Of a stretch of DNA of 7,433 nucleotides, positions 1 through 6,112 are shown one piece after another. The number at the start of each line of letters is the position of its first letter. Position 1 is the stretch's first letter. Source of the DNA: a virus (taxonomy: Duplodnaviria > Heunggongvirae > Uroviricota > Caudoviricetes); the IMG/VR virus record IMGVR_UViG_2778261064_000007. One strand, given 5' to 3'. The notes under the pieces are model-generated. The model saw only the letters and a list, made by a program, of their open reading frames with translations, was not told the origin of the DNA and did no database searches. A program made the translations under genes and the position numbers.

Positions 1-177
1 ATCACATCCGGTTGGGCTACCGACCTGGCGCTGGGCATTCTCAGTGATGAAGAAAAAGAAAAACTGAAAGTCTGGCGTATTTACGCAAAGGAATTGCAGT
101 CGATGGATTTCAGTACAATTGCAGACAAGACTGCTTACGACAATATTGACTGGCCGGAGCAGCCACAAAATACCTGA
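1..177 (+). CDS. Tail fiber assembly protein (Tfa-like), C-terminal fragment; 5' end lies outside the window
   Basis: Frame 1 is open from position 1 to the TGA at 175-177 and translates to ...SDEEKEKLKVWRIYAKELQSMDFSTIADKTAYDNIDWPEQPQNT. The pattern (acidic stretch, W-x2-Y, VD/MD, I-D/E-W-P-x-x-P at the extreme C-terminus) matches the C-terminal motif I recall for lambda Tfa (...[27 protein letters not shown]). Position just upstream of the sheath gene matches P2 gene G order (H-G-FI). Assignment from memory, not a search. Confidence 0.6.
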   Translation: MTSGWATDLALGILSDEEKEKLKVWRIYAKELQSMDFSTIADKTAYDNIDWPEQPQNT

Positions 178-195
178 AAAAGAAATGAATCATCT

Positions 196-218
196 GACCG
201 CCTGAGGGCGGTTTTTTT
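196..218 (+). terminator. Intrinsic-terminator-like hairpin (stem ACCGCC / GGCGGT, loop TGAG) followed by T7 tract
   Basis: Seen directly: 197-202 ACCGCC pairs with 207-212 GGCGGT, loop 203-206, T-run 212-218. Located 19 nt after the tfa stop and immediately before the sheath RBS (GGGAG 221-225). Confidence 0.6.
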
Positions 219-231
219 ATGGGAGAAATGT

Positions 232-1707
232 ATGTCCGGACTACATGGTGTTGAAACCATTGAACTGACGACAGGCACGGTTGCCGTGCAGACCATCTCC
301 ACTGCAGTGATTGGCCTGGTGGGGACAGCGCCGGGCGCCTCTGGTGGCGTGTGCGCTTCCGGCACCGCCGGCTCCTGGCTGCTGGGAACGGCGCTGGATT
401 TCACGGCGAAACTGGAAGGTCGGGCCGGTAATAAGATTTCGGTGGTTGCCGTCGCTGCCACAGAACAAAACGCGCAGACAGTGGCATCGCTGGAAGGCAC
501 AACCCTGACGATAACGCTGGGGACGGACGAACACAGCCAGGTTAACGCCACGGTGGACTGTGTGACTGAAGCGGTGAATGCGCTGGGGGATTCGCCTGTG
601 ACGGCGGCTGTCAGCTCCCTGAATGCAGGAGGCGCTGAAAATAATGTGGTGTCGCCGTTCAGCCTGACGTTATCCGGCGGGGAAGATGAGGCGTTCCCGG
701 TCAATACACCGGTGGTGGTGGCAGGGGCCATTACTCAGGCAGGGAAACTGGGTACAGCCGGAACATTATACCCGGCCCTGCGAGATATTTTTGACCAGAC
801 TGGTGCGCTGGTGATTGTGGTGCGCGCAGAAAGTAAAACAAAGGCGAAAGAGGCCGAACAGCGTGCGGCGGTGATTCAGGCCATGGAGGCGCTGACAGAA
901 AGTAAGGGCGTGACAGGCTATCAACCGCGCATCCTCATTGCCACGGGGTACAGTGAGGATGATGGCGTGGCAAAGGCGCTGGAAACGTATGCCGTGAAGC
1001 TGCGGGCTGTGGCCTATATTGACTCGCCTTCAATGGCAACGCCGCAGGATGTGGTTCAGCGGCGCGCGTCATTTGGCGGGCGTGTGGAGCTGCTGCGTCC
1101 GCGCGTGTCTGTGACGGATGACAGCGGGCAGACGATATTTCGTCCATATTCGGCCCGTGCTGCCGGGCTGCGGGCCCGTATTGATTACGAAAAAGGGTGG
1201 TGGTGGTCCAAATCAAACCAGGATGTGATGAATATCACCGGTCTGGAGCAGGTGGACACATTTATTCTCGGAGAGCAGAACTGCACGGCAAACCTGCTGA
1301 ACATGGAAAATATCTCCACCATTATTCGCCATGACGGTTTTAAACACTGGGGTAACCGTCTGTGCACATCCCACAGTCAGTGGCGTTTTGAGCCGGTACG
1401 CCGCACTGCAGATGTGATTGAGGACAGCATCCAGGAGGCCATGCTGCCTTATGTCGATCGCCCGCTTGATCGGGATGTGGCAGACGACATTCTTGGCAGC
1501 ATTAATGCCTATATGCGTCAGCTTAAAAATCTGGGCGCGATCCACGGTGGCAGTGCATGGCTGAACGATGAACTGAACACTGCAGAAACCCTGGCAGCAG
1601 GGCAGTTGTATATTGATTATGACTTTGGGCCGAAGTCACCACTGGAGCGCCTGACACTGCGGGCAATGATTAACAATAAACTGGCGCTGGAGGAACTGAC
1701 AGTATGA
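232..1707 (+). CDS. FI: Contractile tail sheath protein (P2 gpFI family), 491 aa
   Basis: Complete ORF with ATG at 232 and RBS GGGAG 6 nt upstream. The N-terminus (HGVETIELTTGTVAVQTISTAVIGLVGTA) and C-terminus (RHDGFKHWGNR...ETLAAGQLYIDYDFGPKSPLERLTLRA) resemble the P2 FI sheath as I recall it (...LIRRDGFRFWGNR...[27 protein letters not shown]). Followed by a tube-sized gene as in P2. Confidence 0.92.
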   Translation: MSGLHGVETIELTTGTVAVQTISTAVIGLVGTAPGASGGVCASGTAGSWLLGTALDFTAKLEGRAGNKISVVAVAATEQNAQTVASLEGTTLTITLGTDEHSQVNATVDCVTEAVNALGDSPVTAAVSSLNAGGAENNVVSPFSLTLSGGEDEAFPVNTPVVVAGAITQAGKLGTAGTLYPALRDIFDQTGALVIVVRAESKTKAKEAEQRAAVIQAMEALTESKGVTGYQPRILIATGYSEDDGVAKALETYAVKLRAVAYIDSPSMATPQDVVQRRASFGGRVELLRPRVSVTDDSGQTIFRPYSARAAGLRARIDYEKGWWWSKSNQDVMNITGLEQVDTFILGEQNCTANLLNMENISTIIRHDGFKHWGNRLCTSHSQWRFEPVRRTADVIEDSIQEAMLPYVDRPLDRDVADDILGSINAYMRQLKNLGAIHGGSAWLNDELNTAETLAAGQLYIDYDFGPKSPLERLTLRAMINNKLALEELTV

Positions 1708-2222
1708 TGACGGGTGAAAAAAAACTGTTGCGCGCATGGGCGTTATTTCTTCCTGGCGGGATCCGCCTTCAGGGTGCGCATGAATACACGCCGCCTGCCA
1801 TTAATATCACGACAGTGGATATCAAAACCGGCGCAATGGATGCACCGGTGGCAGTGGATGACGGCATGGAAGCGCTGACCTGTTCGTTTAAGATTTATGG
1901 CTATGATGTTGCCATGCTGACGCTGCTGGGATTACAGGCCGGGCTTTATTCGCCGGAGATTGTTGTGCGCCAGGGCTATCAGGTGGGGAATGCGACCAGC
2001 GGACAGGTGGAAACCCTGCAGGGGATGATCACCAGCATCACGCCGGATGCACGTCCGGCAACATCGCAGGCAGACGCCTCGGTGACGGTGGAAATGTCGC
2101 TGAGTTATTACCGCCAGGCTGTCGACGGTGTGGAAACCATCTGCATTATTCCGGAGGAGTTTGTACGTCGTATTAATGGCGTTAATGTTCTGGCGGATCT
2201 GAAAAAAATCATCCGGGTTTAA
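1704..2222 (+). CDS. FII: Tail tube protein (P2 gpFII family), 172 aa
   Basis: ORF start ATG 1704 overlaps the sheath stop (ATGA, 1704-1707), with a second in-frame ATG at 1707. RBS GGAGGA at 1690-1695. Length 172 aa equals the size I recall for P2 FII; position directly after the sheath gene. Sequence similarity itself not verified. Confidence 0.88.
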   Translation: MMTGEKKLLRAWALFLPGGIRLQGAHEYTPPAINITTVDIKTGAMDAPVAVDDGMEALTCSFKIYGYDVAMLTLLGLQAGLYSPEIVVRQGYQVGNATSGQVETLQGMITSITPDARPATSQADASVTVEMSLSYYRQAVDGVETICIIPEEFVRRINGVNVLADLKKIIRV

Positions 2223-2240
2223 TCCGGGATCCTGTCATTC

Positions 2241-2265
2241 AGGCGGCTCAGGCCGCCTTTTTTTT
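2241..2265 (+). terminator. Intrinsic-terminator-like hairpin (AGGCGGC / GCCGCCT, loop TCAG) followed by T8 tract
   Basis: Seen directly: 2241-2247 AGGCGGC pairs with 2252-2258 GCCGCCT, T-run 2258-2265. The AGGAG RBS of gene E follows immediately (2266-2270). Confidence 0.55.
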
Positions 2266-2276
2266 AGGAGATGCTT

Positions 2277-2579
2277 ATGTCGGAAAAAAACAGTGTTCCT
2301 GCCAGCTGCGTGGAAATTGTGTTATCCGTGCCGTATGTCACCGCATCAGGACAGACGATCACGCACGTCACCATGCGTGCGCCCACCGTCCGCGATCGTC
2401 TGTTGCATCGCCGGAGTACCAAACCGGAAGCAGAGGCTGATCTGGATATGATTGCCGGTCTGTGCGGGATGGACGCGGCAGACATGATGAACATGGAAGC
2501 GTGTGATTACCTGGCCCTGGAGCGGCAGTTTAATGTTTTTTTGCTGCCGCCGGTCCGGCGGAAGAAGAAAACATCCTGA
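2277..2579 (+). CDS. E: Tail assembly chaperone (P2 gpE / lambda gpG analog), 100 aa
   Basis: Small ORF between tube and tape measure genes. I prefer ATG 2277 (AGGAG at 2266-2270, 6-nt spacer) over the ORF-track start 2271, which abuts the RBS. Contains a TTTTTTG slippery motif near its 3' end. Assignment is by position and size. Confidence 0.8.
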   Translation: MSEKNSVPASCVEIVLSVPYVTASGQTITHVTMRAPTVRDRLLHRRSTKPEAEADLDMIAGLCGMDAADMMNMEACDYLALERQFNVFLLPPVRRKKKTS

Positions 2580-2716
2580 TGGCGATACGGCGTGCCGGTG
2601 TCTGGTTCGGGTGGTCACCCGGAGATGTGATGGCACTGCCGTATGAGGATTTTGTGGCAATAATGCTGGCAGAGGCGGAAGAGAGGAAGCAGTGTTATGG
2701 CAACGGTGGGCGATAA
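2277..2716 (+). CDS. Predicted E+E' frameshift fusion (tail assembly chaperone, ~146 aa); joins zero frame 2277-2542 to -1 frame 2543-2716
   Basis: Translating the -1 frame from 2543 gives AAAGPAEEENILMAIRRAGVWFGWSPGDVMALPYEDFVAIMLAEAEERKQCYGNGGR* with stop at 2714-2716. The extension overlaps the tape measure start (2697), as E' overlaps T in P2. Predicted size is close to the ~142 aa I recall for P2 E+E'. Confidence 0.65.
2536..2543 (+). other. Predicted -1 programmed ribosomal frameshift site (slippery T-run ending in G, heptamer T_TTT_TTG)
   Basis: Seen directly: G2535 then T2536-T2542 then G2543. Zero-frame codons are GTT-TTT-TTG (V-F-L). The -1 frame is open from 2543 to the TAA at 2714-2716. 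The same heptamer at the same relative position is the reported P2 E/E' shift site (established knowledge). Confidence 0.7.
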
Positions 2717-4349
2717 CCTCAGAGCGAATATCCGGATCGGCGGCACGATAGATCCGTCGTGGAAAAATTCTGTTAATGGCCTGAAAAAGGGCCTTTCCGG
2801 AGCCACGCGTGAAGTGGCTCGTCTGACACGCCAGCAGGACGTACTGAAACGAAAAATCCAGGCTGGCGTACTGGCAGGACAGGATATTACCGATCTGCGA
2901 AAGCAGTATGAAAAGCTGGGTAAAAAAATCCATGATGCCACCGCTGAGCAGGACAGATTTAACCGTGAACTGGCGCGTGCGGAACGTCTGGCTCGCTGGA
3001 AAGGGCGTGGAATGACTGCCCTGAAAGTGGGGGGCGAGCTTTCAGTCGGGGCAGGACTGACACTGGCAGGCGCTGCAGGTGCAGCACTTAGCCGGAACAG
3101 TGAAACGGCGGAGCGGGCAGGGATCGCCCGCAGTTACGGAGTGGATTATGAAACCTATGCGGCGTGGGATTCTCTGGCCCGACTGATGGGGCTGAACGGT
3201 GAAAACATCGGTGATCTGTTTGAGGAGTACCGGAACAAGGTTTTTGACGATGGTAATGGTGCCACGGATAAAGGGGCCATTCAGGAGGTCTTTGGCAAAC
3301 TGGGACTGAAAGCCGGGGTGATGGCAGGGAAAAGTAACCAGGAGCAGGTCGAATTTTTATTTGATCGCTTACTGCAGGTAGAGAATGAACAGGTGGCAGC
3401 CGGGATGGCAGATGCGTTGTTTGGTGGTGAGGCCAATAAAATTCTGACCTGGATGCGTCTGTCAGGAAAAACTTACCGGGAGCTTATCAGTGAGCAGAAA
3501 CGCTATAACCTGGTGACAAAGGCAGGGGCAGATGGCGCAGTTCAGGGGCATATGGCGCTGTCAAATCTCAGTAATGTTCTGAGTTCGTCCATTGATGAAA
3601 TCAGCGGGCAACTGGGTAAGGAGCTGGCACCACATATTCAACAGGTGACGGATGACCTTGCGGCCTGGTTTAAGAATGGTGGACTGGAAAAAATCCGGGC
3701 ATTTATTCGTGATGATGCCCTGCCGGCGCTGATCGACTTGGCTGCCTGGATGTGGAAATTTGGAAAAGTTCTTGCCGGAATTACACAAAAAGCCATTGAG
3801 TGGGGGCTGGCGGATGATCCGCGAGAGGACCGACGGGAAGTGCTGGAGTATCTGGCAAAAATGGGGTCGCCGGAGCTGGCGAGAGTAGTGGCGCAGAAAA
3901 ACGGTCAGGGTGAATGGTTTGATGAACTGCTCAGGCAAAATCCTGACCTGACAAAACAGGTTGTACAGGCCTATAAAGACACCCGCGGTTATCTCCCCTG
4001 GAATCATGACGATAAAAAGTTTGATGCATTTCTCGACCCTTTGCTGGGACCGAAGGAAGAACCTGATTTTAAGGCGATAAAAGAGAAATCCCGCACCTAC
4101 ATTGACGGACTTCCTGCGGCTGGTCAGGGACAGGAAAATCCTGATCGCCTTTCAGCTCTCCAGTATACACCCGGCAGTATCAGCCAGGTGGAAGTAAAAC
4201 CCACGTATCAGATACGGGCGGAATTCAACATTACCCAGAAACCTGGCGAGGATGCCGGACAACTTGCAGACAGGGTGATGAAAAATCTGGGGGATATTAA
4301 TTTTGGCCAGCGTTCCCGTATGACTGATGGTTATGAATCCTGGGGGTGA
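2697..4349 (+). CDS. T: Tail tape measure protein (P2 gpT analog), 550 aa
   Basis: Complete ORF, ATG 2697 with GAGAGGAAG RBS upstream. Position is immediately after E/E'. Translation has a long predicted helical, charged N-terminal half (LKRKIQAGVLAGQDITDLRKQYEKLGKKIHDATAEQDRFNRELARAERLARW) and Gly/Ala hydrophobic segment (GGELSVGAGLTLAGAAGAAL) typical of tape measure proteins. Confidence 0.85.
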   Translation: MATVGDNLRANIRIGGTIDPSWKNSVNGLKKGLSGATREVARLTRQQDVLKRKIQAGVLAGQDITDLRKQYEKLGKKIHDATAEQDRFNRELARAERLARWKGRGMTALKVGGELSVGAGLTLAGAAGAALSRNSETAERAGIARSYGVDYETYAAWDSLARLMGLNGENIGDLFEEYRNKVFDDGNGATDKGAIQEVFGKLGLKAGVMAGKSNQEQVEFLFDRLLQVENEQVAAGMADALFGGEANKILTWMRLSGKTYRELISEQKRYNLVTKAGADGAVQGHMALSNLSNVLSSSIDEISGQLGKELAPHIQQVTDDLAAWFKNGGLEKIRAFIRDDALPALIDLAAWMWKFGKVLAGITQKAIEWGLADDPREDRREVLEYLAKMGSPELARVVAQKNGQGEWFDELLRQNPDLTKQVVQAYKDTRGYLPWNHDDKKFDAFLDPLLGPKEEPDFKAIKEKSRTYIDGLPAAGQGQENPDRLSALQYTPGSISQVEVKPTYQIRAEFNITQKPGEDAGQLADRVMKNLGDINFGQRSRMTDGYESWG

Positions 4350-4840
4350 AGATGGTGGATTTACTGGGCTGGGGCGTAAACCGGCTTGAGCGCGAAGCAT
4401 GGGACGCAGTGGGCTCATTAACGGAGGTGGCTTCCCGCGTCATGCTGTCGTTTGGTGAGTTTGAATTCAGTATCGATACGGCAGCGTATAACGCCATGAA
4501 GCGCACCATGGAATGGCGGTGGGATGAACAACAGCTTATCGGAAAAAACGACCTGCTGCAGTATACCGGTAAGGGGGCCAGAACGATAACCTTTGAAGGT
4601 ATGGTGCATGCGGGATTTCGTGACGGTGTGGGAATGGATGCCCTTGATACACTGGTTCAGATGGTGGATGACAATCCGGCCCCGCATCTTCTGGTCTCGG
4701 GCACAGGTGATGTGATGGGGTATTTCGTGGCAACAGCCTATTCAGATAACACCACCTCCTTTCTTCCCGGCGGTGCGCCAAAGAATAAAACGTTCACTCT
4801 GGAGCTGAAATACTATGGCGAAAAACTGGCGGACCACTGA
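4346..4840 (+). CDS. U: Tail protein gpU family (tail tube terminator/initiator-type protein), ~162-164 aa
   Basis: ORF-track start 4346 is a GTG that overlaps the T stop (TGA 4347-4349). An in-frame ATG at 4352 with GGGGG 5 nt upstream may be the true start. Position between tape measure and X/D as in phiCTX and R-type pyocin loci. Sequence pattern (...FEFSIDT...TFEGMV...GYFV...) is consistent with the gpU family from memory. Confidence 0.82.
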   Translation: MKMVDLLGWGVNRLEREAWDAVGSLTEVASRVMLSFGEFEFSIDTAAYNAMKRTMEWRWDEQQLIGKNDLLQYTGKGARTITFEGMVHAGFRDGVGMDALDTLVQMVDDNPAPHLLVSGTGDVMGYFVATAYSDNTTSFLPGGAPKNKTFTLELKYYGEKLADH

Positions 4841-5033
4841 CGGCGATATGCTGGATGACATCTGTCAGAGGCACTATGGCAGTGCCGGGCTTAACCAGTC
4901 ACTGGCGGCGGTACTGGAGGCTAATCCGGGGCTGGCTGACCTTGGTCCGGTCTATCCGGCGGGAGTGGAAATCGTGTTGCCGGACTGGGTATATGAACCG
5001 GAAGTGAAGGAGACGTTTCAGTTATGGGAGTGA
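4815..5033 (+). CDS. X: Tail protein X (P2 gpX family, LysM-like), 72 aa
   Basis: Translation MAKNWRTTDGDMLDDICQRHYGSAGLNQSLAAVLEANPGLADLGPVYPAGVEIVLPDWVYEPEVKETFQLWE closely matches the P2 gpX sequence as I recall it (GDTLDAICVRYYG...VLAANPGLAELG...LPD...LWE). Overlaps the U stop by 26 nt. Confidence 0.9.
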   Translation: MAKNWRTTDGDMLDDICQRHYGSAGLNQSLAAVLEANPGLADLGPVYPAGVEIVLPDWVYEPEVKETFQLWE

Positions 5034-6112
5034 ATGAGTATCAGCCGGATTTCAGTCTGACAGCGGAAGGTCAGGATATCACGAAGGAAATAAAACGAGG
5101 TCTGGCTGAGCTGCGATATACCGATAATGGTGCTGGCACAAAGCGGTCCGATGAACTGATGATAACGCTGTTCAGTGAGACGCTGGCGTTGCCCCCGAAA
5201 GGCGCGGTGCTAACGCTGGGACTGGGGTTCAACGGAAATCTGGTAAATAAAGGCAGCTTTACCGTCTGTCAGGTGGCAAGTGGTGGCCCTCCCCGCCGGA
5301 TCACTATTTATGCCACCGCAGCCCCCATGAATGCGTCAAAACATGGCGCGGACGTGACCGCACTGAAAACCCGCGCTTTCAGTGATATCTCGCTGGGAGA
5401 TCTGGTAAAAACCATCGCCACTGAAAATAATCTGGTGGCGCAGGTATCACCGGCGCTGGCTGGTATTCATATCCCGTGGGTGATGCAGTCATCAGAATCT
5501 GATGCAGCCCTCCTGTCCCGCATTGCAGGTATGTACGGTGCCACCAGTAAACCGACCAGTGGCTACTGGTTGTTTCTGGAATACGGGGCATCACGGAGTG
5601 CAGGGGGCAGAAATGCCCCTGAGATAACCATTACGCCGGGTATGGTATCAGACTGGGATTATCGTGAAGGTGAGCGACAGGGCGCTGCGGGTGGCGGGAA
5701 AGATGGGAAAGTGGGTGTCCGGTATTTTGATGCCCGTGACGGACGCACACGTGAAGTTAAAGTTGACGTGGAGTCAACAGATAAGCGGCATCCCTTTACC
5801 CAGCCTGACCAGGGCACCGCAAAACACTGTGCAGAGTCGAAGGTTAAACGTGTGCAGAAAGCCGGACGCCAGATGACGATAACGTTGCCCTGCAGACCGG
5901 AACTGCTGAAAGCGGGGGCGGAGGTGCGTTTTATCACGCAGGGATTTGGTGTGCGTGAGGACCATTACTGGCAGGCTGAATCGGTGGAGTTTTCACTGGC
6001 ACCGGGGCAGGGATTTTCGCTGAATCTGTCGCTGACCACGGATATTTCCGCGAAAGGACAGGCATCAGGGAAGAAGAACGCGGATAAAAAAGGTGTCAAT
6101 TATTACGGTTAA
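5024..6112 (+). CDS. D: Tail protein gpD family (P2 late gene D product; baseplate hub/spike-associated, distantly related to VgrG N-terminal region), 362 aa
   Basis: Complete ORF, ATG 5024 with AAGGAG at 5007-5012, overlapping the X stop by 10 nt. Size and position after U-X match phiCTX/R-pyocin order. Motif resemblance (LTLGLGF, RPELLKAGAEV, DHYWQAESVEFSL) is from memory only. Confidence 0.82.
   Translation: MGVNEYQPDFSLTAEGQDITKEIKRGLAELRYTDNGAGTKRSDELMITLFSETLALPPKGAVLTLGLGFNGNLVNKGSFTVCQVASGGPPRRITIYATAAPMNASKHGADVTALKTRAFSDISLGDLVKTIATENNLVAQVSPALAGIHIPWVMQSSESDAALLSRIAGMYGATSKPTSGYWLFLEYGASRSAGGRNAPEITITPGMVSDWDYREGERQGAAGGGKDGKVGVRYFDARDGRTREVKVDVESTDKRHPFTQPDQGTAKHCAESKVKRVQKAGRQMTITLPCRPELLKAGAEVRFITQGFGVREDHYWQAESVEFSLAPGQGFSLNLSLTTDISAKGQASGKKNADKKGVNYYG

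Follow-up and report, generated by a model that had tools for sequence, protein, structure and literature searches.

Terminator-like hairpins around the sheath and tube genes of a contractile-tail prophage and their possible role in a predicted Q-antiterminated late operon

The tail genes of the Caudoviricetes record IMGVR_UViG_2778261064_000007 raise a simple question: why should hairpins that look like transcription terminators stand inside a run of co-directional genes, each directly in front of the ribosome-binding site of the next gene? The stretch of DNA analysed here (7,433 nucleotides, referred to as the window) has two such hairpins, one before the tail sheath gene and the other before the tail assembly gene E. 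An earlier note on this DNA had assumed a P2-style regulation of the tail genes, and had suggested that partial termination at the second hairpin would set the stoichiometry of the tail proteins.

Anatomy and position of the two hairpins

Direct reading of the coordinates, a consensus scan and RNA folding all placed the two hairpins immediately before the ribosome-binding sites of the sheath gene and gene E, as the earlier note had described (Table 1). Both are canonical terminator-like structures with textbook anatomy on the sense strand: each has a 7-bp stem (with 5 and 6 G-C pairs in hairpin 1 and hairpin 2, respectively), a tetraloop, and a U-run directly 3' of the stem. Stem and loop sizes are within the ranges expected of intrinsic terminators (stems of about 5-14 bp, loops of 3-8 nt). 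When the + strand was scanned for terminator-like sites, hairpins 1 and 2 ranked best in the window; the window as a whole had no enrichment of such sites (12, compared with 7.7 +/- 2.9 in shuffled sequences). The hairpin free energies, which the earlier note had proposed to compute as a check, were -11.3 kcal/mol for hairpin 1 alone and -14.3 kcal/mol for hairpin 2. None of 200 shuffled sequences folded as well as hairpin 2 (z = -3.9). Hairpin 1 is of moderate stability, with five G-C pairs, one A-U pair and one G-U pair; its 36-nt minimum free energy (MFE) was -11.6 kcal/mol (z = -1.7), and 9 of 200 shuffles folded equally well.

Table 1. Coordinates of the genes, ribosome-binding sites and hairpins around the sheath-tube pair in the window
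Feature	Position	Strand	Details
tfa (tail fibre assembly), 3' end	1..177	+	PF02413 Caudo_TAP, E = 7.6e-14; stop TGA 175-177
Hairpin 1, intrinsic-terminator-like	196..218	+	GACCGCC (196-202)/GGCGGTT (207-213), loop TGAG, T7 212-218
Sheath SD, GGGAG	221..225	+	2 nt (219-220 = AT) past the T-run; 6 nt before ATG 232
Tail sheath gene, FI-like, 491 aa	232..1707	+	Pfam PF04984, PF17482, PF22671
Tail tube gene, FII-like, 172 aa	1704..2222	+	PF04985, E = 1.9e-23; stop TAA 2220-2222
Hairpin 2, intrinsic-terminator-like	2241..2265	+	AGGCGGC (2241-2247)/GCCGCCT (2252-2258), loop TCAG, T8 2258-2265
Gene E SD, AGGAG	2266..2270	+	abuts the T-run of hairpin 2; kept in relatives
Gene E-like tail assembly chaperone	2277..2579	+	PF10109, E = 6e-12

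Neither structure falls into the class of stabiliser hairpins that consist of a stem without a U-run, as both window hairpins carry the full U-run. There was no sign of a regulated attenuator or riboswitch either: the window had no Rfam match at E <= 1, and folding of the regions 170-245 and 2215-2285 gave only the terminator hairpin with weak outer pairing.

The two hairpins are placed in the same manner. Both begin 18 nt past the preceding stop codon and end 0-2 nt before the next Shine-Dalgarno (SD) sequence. Only two non-coding gaps between co-directional genes in 1-6112 exceed 25 nt. They measure 54 nt and 48 nt, and each is filled by one of the hairpins. All other junctions in this region overlap or are at most 24 nt long; the tube start, for example, overlaps the sheath stop (ATGA) in the list of open reading frames. 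The gene positions also agree with the earlier observation that hairpin 2 divides the sheath and tube genes from the genes E-T-U-X-D. As for the flanking genes, the counterpart of tfa in a 97.9%-identical prophage is annotated as a tail fiber assembly protein. The open reading frame of gene E opens at ATG 2271; the second ATG at 2277 has the proper SD spacing, is the one retained in relatives (relatives of the L003 type are without the first ATG), and corresponds to the annotated gene E start in the relative L001. Downstream of gene D, a tail fibre gene extends from 6137 to the end of the window (PF08400, PF03406), and in L001 the region past D contains tail fibre genes followed by an IS66 element.

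Conservation of the hairpins among relatives

Relatives of the window were taken from IMG/VR scans, yielding a comparative set of 113 loci with a tube identity of 45-100%. Megablast of a phage collection with the window gave no match, and a scan of genome contigs with the tube protein gave no confirmed relative; in the closest isolated phages the tube protein is only about 47% identical. A hairpin followed by a T-run was present at the pre-sheath site in 41 of 44 distinct orthologous sequences, and at the post-tube site in 66 of 67. These comparative data are the strongest evidence against chance hairpins.

The stems fall into three classes at each site, and they covary. In the MAFFT alignment of 30 distinct pre-sheath sequences, 100% of 210 cells were paired at site 1, with double-sided changes in 2 pairs, and controls in which the register was slid gave 23-66% pairing. 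The inner pairs of this stem alternate between GC, CG and UA. No variation was seen in the outer RACC/GGTT pairs, in the T-run or in the SD (GGAG in the pre-sheath alignment A2). At site 2 the three stem classes (AGGCGGC, AACGGCC and AAGGCACC) are mutually unrelated, with the T-run always adjoining GGAG, and one compensatory change of G-C to A-T was found within a clade, in the relative L007. Because MAFFT misregistered the three post-tube stem classes (alignments A3 and A4), alignment-based pair counts are limited to the pre-sheath site; the pairing table for the post-tube site has its register set by the hairpin finder (a hairpin-anchored script) and is biased towards pairing. The loops differ in length and sequence while the stems hold, and in the distant clade many of the loops are of the UNCG type. 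The compensatory changes indicate that the structure of both hairpins has been maintained by selection.

The T-run is conserved as well. Both sites keep a run of T5-T8 right after the stem in two clades that share only about 47% identity in the tube protein, and this run directly adjoins the SD in every clade. In most close relatives the T-run is interrupted by a C, and one relative has a tandem pair of terminators in the tube-E gap.

The boundary of homology at hairpin 1 suggests one possible origin of these structures. Operon-end terminators could have been inherited with a P2-like sheath-tube cassette and, being harmless under the Q antiterminator, would now only mark recombination junctions. 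Indeed, nucleotide homology to the phage Chris1, and with it the similarity between the two lambdoid clades, begins at the hairpin (window position 192), and hairpin 1 remains with the sheath gene even in loci that have a baseplate spike gene, instead of tfa, upstream. P2 also has a terminator upstream of FI at an operon boundary. However, neutral remnants would not retain perfect pairing, covarying stems and a T-run at about 47% tube identity while flanks and loops diverge, and we consider such a relic most improbable.

The late operon and transcription termination

The P2-type late-promoter dyad TGT-N12-ACA, which the earlier note had failed to find in 1-231, was indeed absent from this region: the window has 3 matches, all elsewhere and at chance level. 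A sigma-70-like site was likewise not found in 1-231. The T-run of hairpin 1 ends at 218 and the SD starts at 221, so there is no space for a promoter between hairpin 1 and the sheath gene. A P2-type Ogr/Delta late promoter before the sheath gene was rejected on these grounds (such a promoter has its dyad about 55 nt upstream of the start site, but 1-231 contains none, and only 2 nt, 219-220, lie between the T-run and the SD), and an ogr-like activator gene downstream of D was rejected because the tail fibre gene lies there instead. The earlier note had further considered a sheath promoter within tfa. This could not be sustained, since transcription from such a promoter would start upstream of hairpin 1 and be stopped there, and 1-231 has no sigma-70-like site.

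The assumption of P2-style regulation needs revision: the window is collinear with an E. coli prophage to which it is 97.9% identical, and this prophage carries int-xis-exo, cI/cro-like genes, O/P, RusA and Q (PF03589), and is lambdoid. In a lambdoid prophage with Q, a P2 late promoter is not expected. The prophage has one co-directional late operon, in which the lysis genes come first, then the genes of a lambda-like head and last those of a P2-like tail, and the annotations of L001 and Chris1 also place all late genes (lysis, head and tail) on one strand. The window ends short of the Q region, and Q was examined in relatives only. The relative L037 encodes a Q antiterminator at 21332-22153 (PF03589, E = 1.7e-49; PHROG 127/25523). 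Chris1, which belongs to the more distant clade and keeps both hairpins, encodes a Q-like protein at 4029-4634 (PHROG 753, E = 5e-60). Just past Q, L001 has a promoter-like sequence (TTGATT-16-TG-TAAAAT, 88-115) followed by a hairpin with a T-run (163-182), and past its Q-like gene Chris1 has a promoter-like sequence TTGAAA-16-GATAAT (4672-4699). These are consensus matches only, and promoter-like sites in the window and its relatives occur at or below shuffle expectation. Taken together, the late operon of the window's prophage family is expected to be lambdoid and Q-antiterminated, and not P2-regulated.

For Q-type operons, PMC7547250 describes pR' as constitutively active and terminated just downstream in lysogeny, and PMC8191782 describes processive antitermination as carrying polymerase through multiple terminators. 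The present locus is similar to the lambda Q system (pR'-tR') in that a close relative has a PF03589 Q, a promoter-like site, a terminator-like hairpin and a long co-directional late operon. It differs in that the hairpins studied here are about 20-22 kb downstream in the tail module, where read-through by Q is predicted.

We tentatively propose that the hairpins are genuine intrinsic terminators which bracket the sheath-tube pair within a single Q-antiterminated lambdoid late operon for a P2-type contractile tail, and that they probably stop only polymerase without Q. RNA polymerase unmodified by Q, which could arise in the lysogen, before Q accumulates, or from spurious internal starts, would release its transcript at the GC-rich hairpin and U-run, and the sheath, tube and downstream tail genes would remain silent. 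In lytic growth, Q-modified polymerase would pass both sites, making a separate sheath promoter unnecessary. The hairpins would persist in the read-through mRNA, in which hairpin 2 in particular probably also shields the 3' end, to the benefit of the sheath-tube segment. Residual termination would cause mild attenuation only, and both stabilisation and attenuation would be secondary (or rival) roles. We infer termination in vivo, its suppression by Q, and the benefit that maintains the hairpins.

Several observations speak against this proposal. The Q context is taken from relatives, with the window itself being without Q, and hairpin 1 is only moderately stable. No internal promoter in need of blocking was identified. 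In L001, at least five terminator-like sites on the + strand lie between pR' and the tail genes, so leak-through from pR' should already be negligible. If insulation were the sole role, terminators should not cluster at the genes of abundant proteins, yet in the structural region of the relatives the strong + strand intergenic hairpins are found after decoration, after major capsid, before sheath and after tube. This distribution points to expression tuning.

Tuning by termination is what the earlier note had in mind: a fixed fraction of late transcripts would end at hairpin 2, as would part of the read-through from the fibre genes at hairpin 1, leaving fewer transcripts of E, T, U, X and D. 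Hairpin 2 is strong and canonical, and sits precisely where the high-copy genes give way to the low-copy ones; an analogous hairpin with a T-run follows the major capsid gene in relatives. Partial terminators of this kind are known in phage T7 (T-phi after gene 10) and phage f1 (after gene VIII). On the other hand, polymerase on the genes of a Q-driven operon is expected to be largely terminator-resistant, and partial termination would then be a weak lever for stoichiometry. Attenuation at hairpin 1, which lies before the genes of the most abundant tail proteins, would reduce sheath and tube compared with the baseplate and fibre genes, which are low-copy, and so oppose the required stoichiometry. 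C-interrupted T-runs and tandem terminators in the relatives are also unlike a finely tuned fractional stop. Finally, Ogr-type P2 phages have the same tail stoichiometry and no canonical T-run at this junction, so termination at the tube-E site is not required for stoichiometry. We therefore regard partial termination as a decidedly unlikely explanation.

The hairpins belong to a known and widely observed but poorly understood kind of signal, namely intra-operon terminators in antiterminated late operons. In P22-like phages, such terminators are found within single-promoter late operons; their role is stated to be unknown, and the authors propose either partial termination or the stopping of spurious non-antiterminated transcription (PMC8022706). 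The P22-like phage L in that study has, like the window's family, a predicted intrinsic terminator in a single-promoter late operon with a Q-type antiterminator (gp23), at the end of a structural module. Compared with phage L, the window has two terminators that bracket the sheath-tube pair of a P2-type tail, each abutting the next SD, and for these terminators conservation and covarying stems are recorded in two clades.

P2-type phages and post-transcriptional roles

The P2 F operon (FI-FII-E-E'-T-U-D) shares its gene order with the window; the genes are homologous, the E/E' frameshift is present in both, a terminator precedes FI, and the FII-E gap holds a stable hairpin. In P2 about 100 nt lie between the terminator and FI, and these carry the Ogr site and then pF (relatives of P2 are organised likewise, with an annotated activator site); the FII-E hairpin is without a T-run, and the operon ends after ogr. 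In contrast, the window has neither promoter space nor a dyad before the sheath gene; a T8 run follows the tube gene, and D is followed by a tail fibre gene. A stable GC-rich hairpin of unrelated sequence, without a canonical T-run, was found in the tube-E gap (52-67 nt) of nine Ogr-type P2-family phages (P2 and eight other Peduoviridae); in one of the Peduoviridae, Dobby, only a weak TTTCTCT follows the hairpin. One would expect this difference if full terminators could be tolerated only in the presence of processive antitermination.

The idea that the T-run is exclusive to Q phages had to be softened, because the lytic lineages FoX5 and ECOO78 have a hairpin and a T-run after the tube gene, and the link to Q is to this extent not an exclusive one. 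Xanthomonas phage FoX5 has an annotated rho-independent terminator at the same junction (GGCGGCGG...CCGCCGCC and then TTTTT), but it is a distant lytic phage with a tube protein about 27% identical and a longer gap (92 nt). A universal post-tube hairpin was also rejected, as the gaps in vB_EcoM-569R10 and Vibrio MAR are 10-12 nt long with no hairpin. Full-text searches of the literature found nothing directly relevant on P2 FII-E stem-loops, on Term-seq of such prophages, or on ONT-cappable-seq.

These comparisons bear on the possibility that the selected function is in the RNA hairpins themselves, as segmental mRNA stabilisers or processing boundaries, with termination being incidental. After read-through, an endonucleolytic cut in the U-rich single strand would leave a hairpin that blocks 3'-to-5' exonucleases, resulting in a long-lived sheath-tube mRNA (and long-lived upstream segments) relative to E-T-U-X-D. 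That the nine Ogr-type phages keep the tube-E hairpin without a canonical T-run suggests that the hairpin, not termination, is the ancient feature. Both lambdoid clades place hairpins after decoration, major capsid and tube, which are the most abundant proteins, and the UNCG-type tetraloops and GC-rich stems fit stable 3' caps. Stabilisation can also explain a high level of sheath-tube mRNA despite a terminator-like element upstream. Intercistronic stabiliser hairpins are known in malE-malF (REP), puf and papBA. The present locus shares with these cases, and with T7 and f1, a hairpin right after the gene or genes of the most abundant product and a need for lower expression downstream; those cases are experimentally supported with other polymerases or in other contexts, whereas here hairpin 1 lies upstream of the abundant genes, in an operon that is probably antiterminated. 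However, the T-run is invariant at both sites across two clades, and an exonuclease barrier needs none. The segment stabilised by hairpin 1 would be that of the baseplate and fibre genes, which are low-copy, and not the sheath mRNA, and 569R10 and Vibrio MAR manage without the gap or the hairpin. We consider a primary stabilising function rather unlikely.

A role in translation was considered as well. The hairpin could insulate the ribosome-binding site with the U-run as an S1-binding enhancer, or an outer helix at hairpin 2 could hide the SD of gene E, in either case tuning sheath and E translation. The T-run adjoins the SD in every clade, and the MFE structure of the window pairs UCCUG (2230-2234) with UAGGA (2265-2269) around hairpin 2 (-24.4 kcal/mol, z = -1.9). 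The outer helix, however, is inconsistent across relatives (the estimate of the E start being unreliable in the distant clade), and in P2-type phages the hairpin is separated from the SD by 20-35 nt of sequence not rich in U. In a minor variant, the 3' fragments would be Hfq-binding sRNAs, and prophage Pas sRNAs do end in a similar hairpin and U-tail (bioRxiv 10.64898/2026.05.13.724894). The window has no Rfam match. We find a translational element very unlikely in any of these forms. That the hairpins are terminators of the known Pas sRNAs was rejected, as these map near Q, RusA, TerB and holin, and not at tail junctions.

It is conceivable, although we think it unlikely, that the post-tube hairpin is an old RNA element, conserved in position among P2-type tail modules, which acts mainly after transcription (capping or processing of the sheath-tube mRNA, possibly with Hfq-binding 3' fragments). 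It would have become a full terminator, joined by a pre-sheath partner, only in phages with processive Q antitermination. There the two would act as a Q-gated lock on sheath and tube, the tail proteins made in greatest number, which are perhaps toxic or able to trigger host defences. If so, the strength of the junction terminator would evolve along with the regulatory regime of the phage.

Regardless of which role prevails, the locus is a clean, conserved and tractable example, with two short elements flanking a two-gene block and covariation at both sites, and P2-type phages, in which the hairpin is retained but not followed by a canonical U-run, form a natural comparison set. Annotators should expect no P2 late promoter here and should not label such prophages as P2-regulated. 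In the engineering of tailocins or myovirus tails, the hairpins would be predicted to block expression from a heterologous promoter unless they are removed.

Two hairpins around the sheath and tube genes

The window is a P2-type contractile-tail module in which every gene lies on the + strand. From tfa, the tail fibre assembly gene, to D, just two non-coding gaps exceed 25 nt, and each contains one of the two terminator-like hairpins that the earlier note had placed right before the Shine-Dalgarno (SD) sequences of the sheath gene and of E, the tail assembly chaperone gene. The sequence, a consensus scan and conservation in relatives confirmed both hairpins at these places. They were the top + strand terminator-like sites of the window, and each starts exactly 18 nt 3' of the preceding stop codon (177-196 and 2222-2241).

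Features of the window, with the two hairpins and the genes around them
Feature	Position	Strand	Remark
tfa C-terminus	1-177	+	
Hairpin 1	196-213	+	GACCGCC-TGAG-GGCGGTT; T7 run to 218; SD GGGAG 221-225
Sheath	232-1707	+	
Tube	1704-2222	+	
Hairpin 2	2241-2258	+	AGGCGGC-TCAG-GCCGCCT; T8 run to 2265; SD AGGAG 2266-2270
E-like chaperone	2277-2579	+	-1 frame extension to 2716
Tape measure	2697-4349	+	
gpU	4346-4840	+	
gpX	4815-5033	+	
gpD	5024-6112	+	
Second tail fibre gene	6137 to window end (7433)	+	PF08400 prophage tail fibre N-terminal domain and PF03406 fibre repeat

The free-energy calculation that the note had proposed gave -11.3 kcal/mol for hairpin 1 and -14.3 kcal/mol for hairpin 2. Against shuffled sequences, hairpin 2 stood out clearly (z -3.9, 0 of 200 shuffles as good) and hairpin 1 had only a moderate advantage (z -1.7). 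Taken singly, the window sequence would make a modest statistical case for hairpin 1; it is the comparative data that settle it. In the minimum free energy fold of 2215-2285, UCCUG (2230-2234) pairs with UAGGA (2265-2269), overlapping the SD of E, and hairpin 2 is nested inside this SD-occluding helix (-24.4 kcal/mol, z -1.9), which relatives keep inconsistently.

Conservation of the hairpins among relatives

Relatives were compared at 113 loci taken from IMG/VR and GenBank phages, each with a tube homologue of 45-100% amino-acid identity. At the post-tube site, 66 of 67 distinct sequences have a hairpin followed by a T-run between tube and E, and the T-run adjoins the GGAG of the next gene in every case. 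Three unrelated stems occupy this site (AGGCGGC/GCCGCCT, AACGGCC/GGCCGTT and AAGGCACC/GGTGCCTT); in the clade to which the window belongs, the loop sequences vary and one relative shows a compensatory change from G-C to A-T. One relative, L030 (IMGVR_UViG_2778261068_000003, about 3540-3610), carries two tandem elements in the gap, GGCGGC-ctgt-GCCGCT followed by T-rich sequence and AAACGTCCGG-taac-GGACGTTT followed by TT.

The pre-sheath site has a hairpin and T-run in 41 of 44 distinct sequences. When pairing was scored on 30 distinct sequences aligned by MAFFT without supervision, all 210 cells (100%) were paired, and sliding the partner columns lowered this to 23-66%. Two inner pairs of the stem switch on both sides (UA/GC/CG and GC/CG); no variation occurs in the outer RACC/GGTT pairs, the T-run or the SD. 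That the hairpins are neutral relics is hard to square with this covariation and with a T-run that is invariant where tube proteins share about 47% identity, and we regard it as most improbable. In L020/L052, L088 and L104 the pre-sheath hairpin is missing and the sheath start is preceded by unrelated sequence; these cases may be rearrangements, insertions or contig artefacts.

Hairpin 1 goes with the sheath gene and not with tfa. In a distant clade consisting of Citrobacter phage Chris1, Hafnia phage yong2 and about 55 IMG/VR contigs, a baseplate spike-like gene lies upstream of the sheath gene and the hairpin position is unchanged. Nucleotide similarity between the clades starts at window position 192. 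The pre-sheath stem of this clade opens with the TGA stop of the spike-like gene (aaaatgTGACCTGC; L035 2490-2510 and the Chris1-like loci L060-L115), so a terminating ribosome would occlude the 5' arm, a possible coupling of translation to termination. The loops of the distant clade are mostly UNCG tetraloops (UGCG, UUCG, UCCG, UACG) closed by C-G.

Late-operon context and possible role of the hairpins

From end to end the window is collinear (97.9% identity) with a lambdoid prophage of E. coli 08-00022 (locus L001), which is inserted at ompW and carries, in order, integrase, excisionase, exonuclease, dicB, cI/cro-like repressors, O/P-like replication genes, RusA and Q. The Q protein matches PF03589 (E 1.7e-49) and the PHROG 'anti-termination protein Q-like'. 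An extended -10 promoter-like site (TTGATT-16-TG-TAAAAT) lies six bases 3' of Q, and about 50 nt beyond it is a hairpin with a T-run (L001 88-182), which together look like a classical pR'-tR' arrangement. The tRNAs, lysis genes, lambda-like head module and P2-like tail follow 3' of this pair, all co-directional. Chris1 shares this lambdoid layout: its Q-like protein (PHROG-753) is followed by a promoter-like site. Both clades with full terminators around the sheath-tube pair therefore appear to be Q-type phages. This would explain why the P2-type TGT-N12-ACA late-promoter dyad is missing from 1-231, as the earlier note had observed and we also found, and why no promoter fits between the T-run of hairpin 1 and the sheath SD.

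P2-type phages differ. About 100 nt before the sheath gene FI, P2 and about 80 close relatives have a terminator (e.g. CAGGCGGGCGAATTGCCCGCC then TTTTCTTT), and the annotated site of the late activator Ogr and the promoter pF come after it. The gap between the tube gene FII and E in P2 contains a 9-bp GC-rich hairpin followed by TTAACCC, not by a T-run. In eight further Peduoviridae (from Salmonella, Yersinia, Klebsiella, Pseudomonas, Burkholderia, Stenotrophomonas and E. coli) this gap is 52-67 nt long and holds a stable hairpin of unrelated sequence without a canonical T-run in each. Hairpins at the tube-E junction are thus widespread and old, unlike the U-run. There are exceptions to this pattern: two lineages have a tube-E gap of 10-12 nt and no hairpin, and the lytic lineages FoX5 and ECOO78 have both hairpin and T-run at the junction, the FoX5 terminator having been annotated by its authors. 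In the literature searched, which covers older P2 work thinly, we found no description of the conserved bracketing of the sheath-tube pair or of the contrast between Q-type (hairpin and U-run) and Ogr-type (hairpin only) phages; this may reflect search coverage rather than a true gap.

The strong intergenic hairpins of the structural region are clustered at genes for abundant proteins in both clades; they follow the decoration, major capsid and tube genes and precede the sheath gene. Those 3' of the major capsid gene (a tandem pair in Chris1) and of the decoration gene carry a T-run (15770-15820 in L116, the Chris1 locus; L001 12736-12760 and 13816-13836). The first post-capsid element of Chris1, GACCGCC-gcct-GGCGGTT then TTTTTAT, has a stem identical to that of the window's pre-sheath hairpin.

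We tentatively propose, with somewhat less than even confidence, that the two hairpins are real intrinsic terminators conditional on the state of the polymerase, at which unmodified RNA polymerase would halt and through which Q-modified polymerase would pass. The proposal builds on Q-type processive antitermination, which is established knowledge (PMC8191782, PMC7547250). An intrinsic terminator within an antiterminated late operon is a known kind of element, and conditional termination matches one of the two roles proposed for intra-operon terminators, whose function specialists call unknown (PMC8022706). We go no higher because the hairpins are grouped around abundant-protein genes and because P2-type phages retain the hairpin without the U-run. 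Both observations favor a post-transcriptional role in 3' capping or processing, which is possible but rather doubtful. The earlier note had instead suggested that partial termination at hairpin 2 would set the stoichiometry of sheath and tube against E, T, U, X and D. While the hairpins and their positions stand, that reading is weakened by the antitermination context, by the placement of hairpin 1 upstream of abundant genes and by the P2 comparison, and it is unlikely. Roles at the level of translation or as sRNA have little support and are very improbable. The two-hairpin finding itself is real and conserved, and is tentatively reinterpreted here as conditional termination.

Further features of the window and its E. 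coli relative

The 5' end of the L001 late operon (88-182 and 1695-3370) contains, with the pR'/tR'-like pair, tRNA-Thr, tRNA-Gly, a TerB pseudogene and, at 2129-2146 and 2781-2802, more terminators on the + strand. It is from this neighbourhood that Pas sRNAs of prophages have been reported (bioRxiv 10.64898/2026.05.13.724894).

The window has a second tail fibre gene 3' of D, at the position that ogr takes in P2. This gives the phage two fibre loci, one (H/tfa) upstream of the sheath gene and the other downstream of D. The sheath stop and tube start overlap as ATGA (1704-1707), which suggests translational coupling of the hairpin-bracketed pair. Gene E contains T TTT TTG at 2537-2543, a signal for programmed -1 frameshifting of the P2 type that is in the correct zero-frame register, and the -1 frame ORF (2579-2716), which overlaps the tape-measure start at 2697, would yield an E+E' product; the annotated E/E' arrangement of P2 matches this layout. 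The E ORF opens at ATG 2271, right behind the SD (spacing 0). A second in-frame ATG, at 2277, is the likely true start: its SD spacing is 6 nt, the annotation of the E. coli relative uses it, and relatives of the L003 type have no other.

The best score of the entire terminator scan fell on the minus strand at 1827-1849, antisense within the tube gene (9 bp, 6 G-C pairs, tail TTTGATAT). The E. coli relative has the same site (L001 21827-21849), which could stop antisense transcription or be due to chance.
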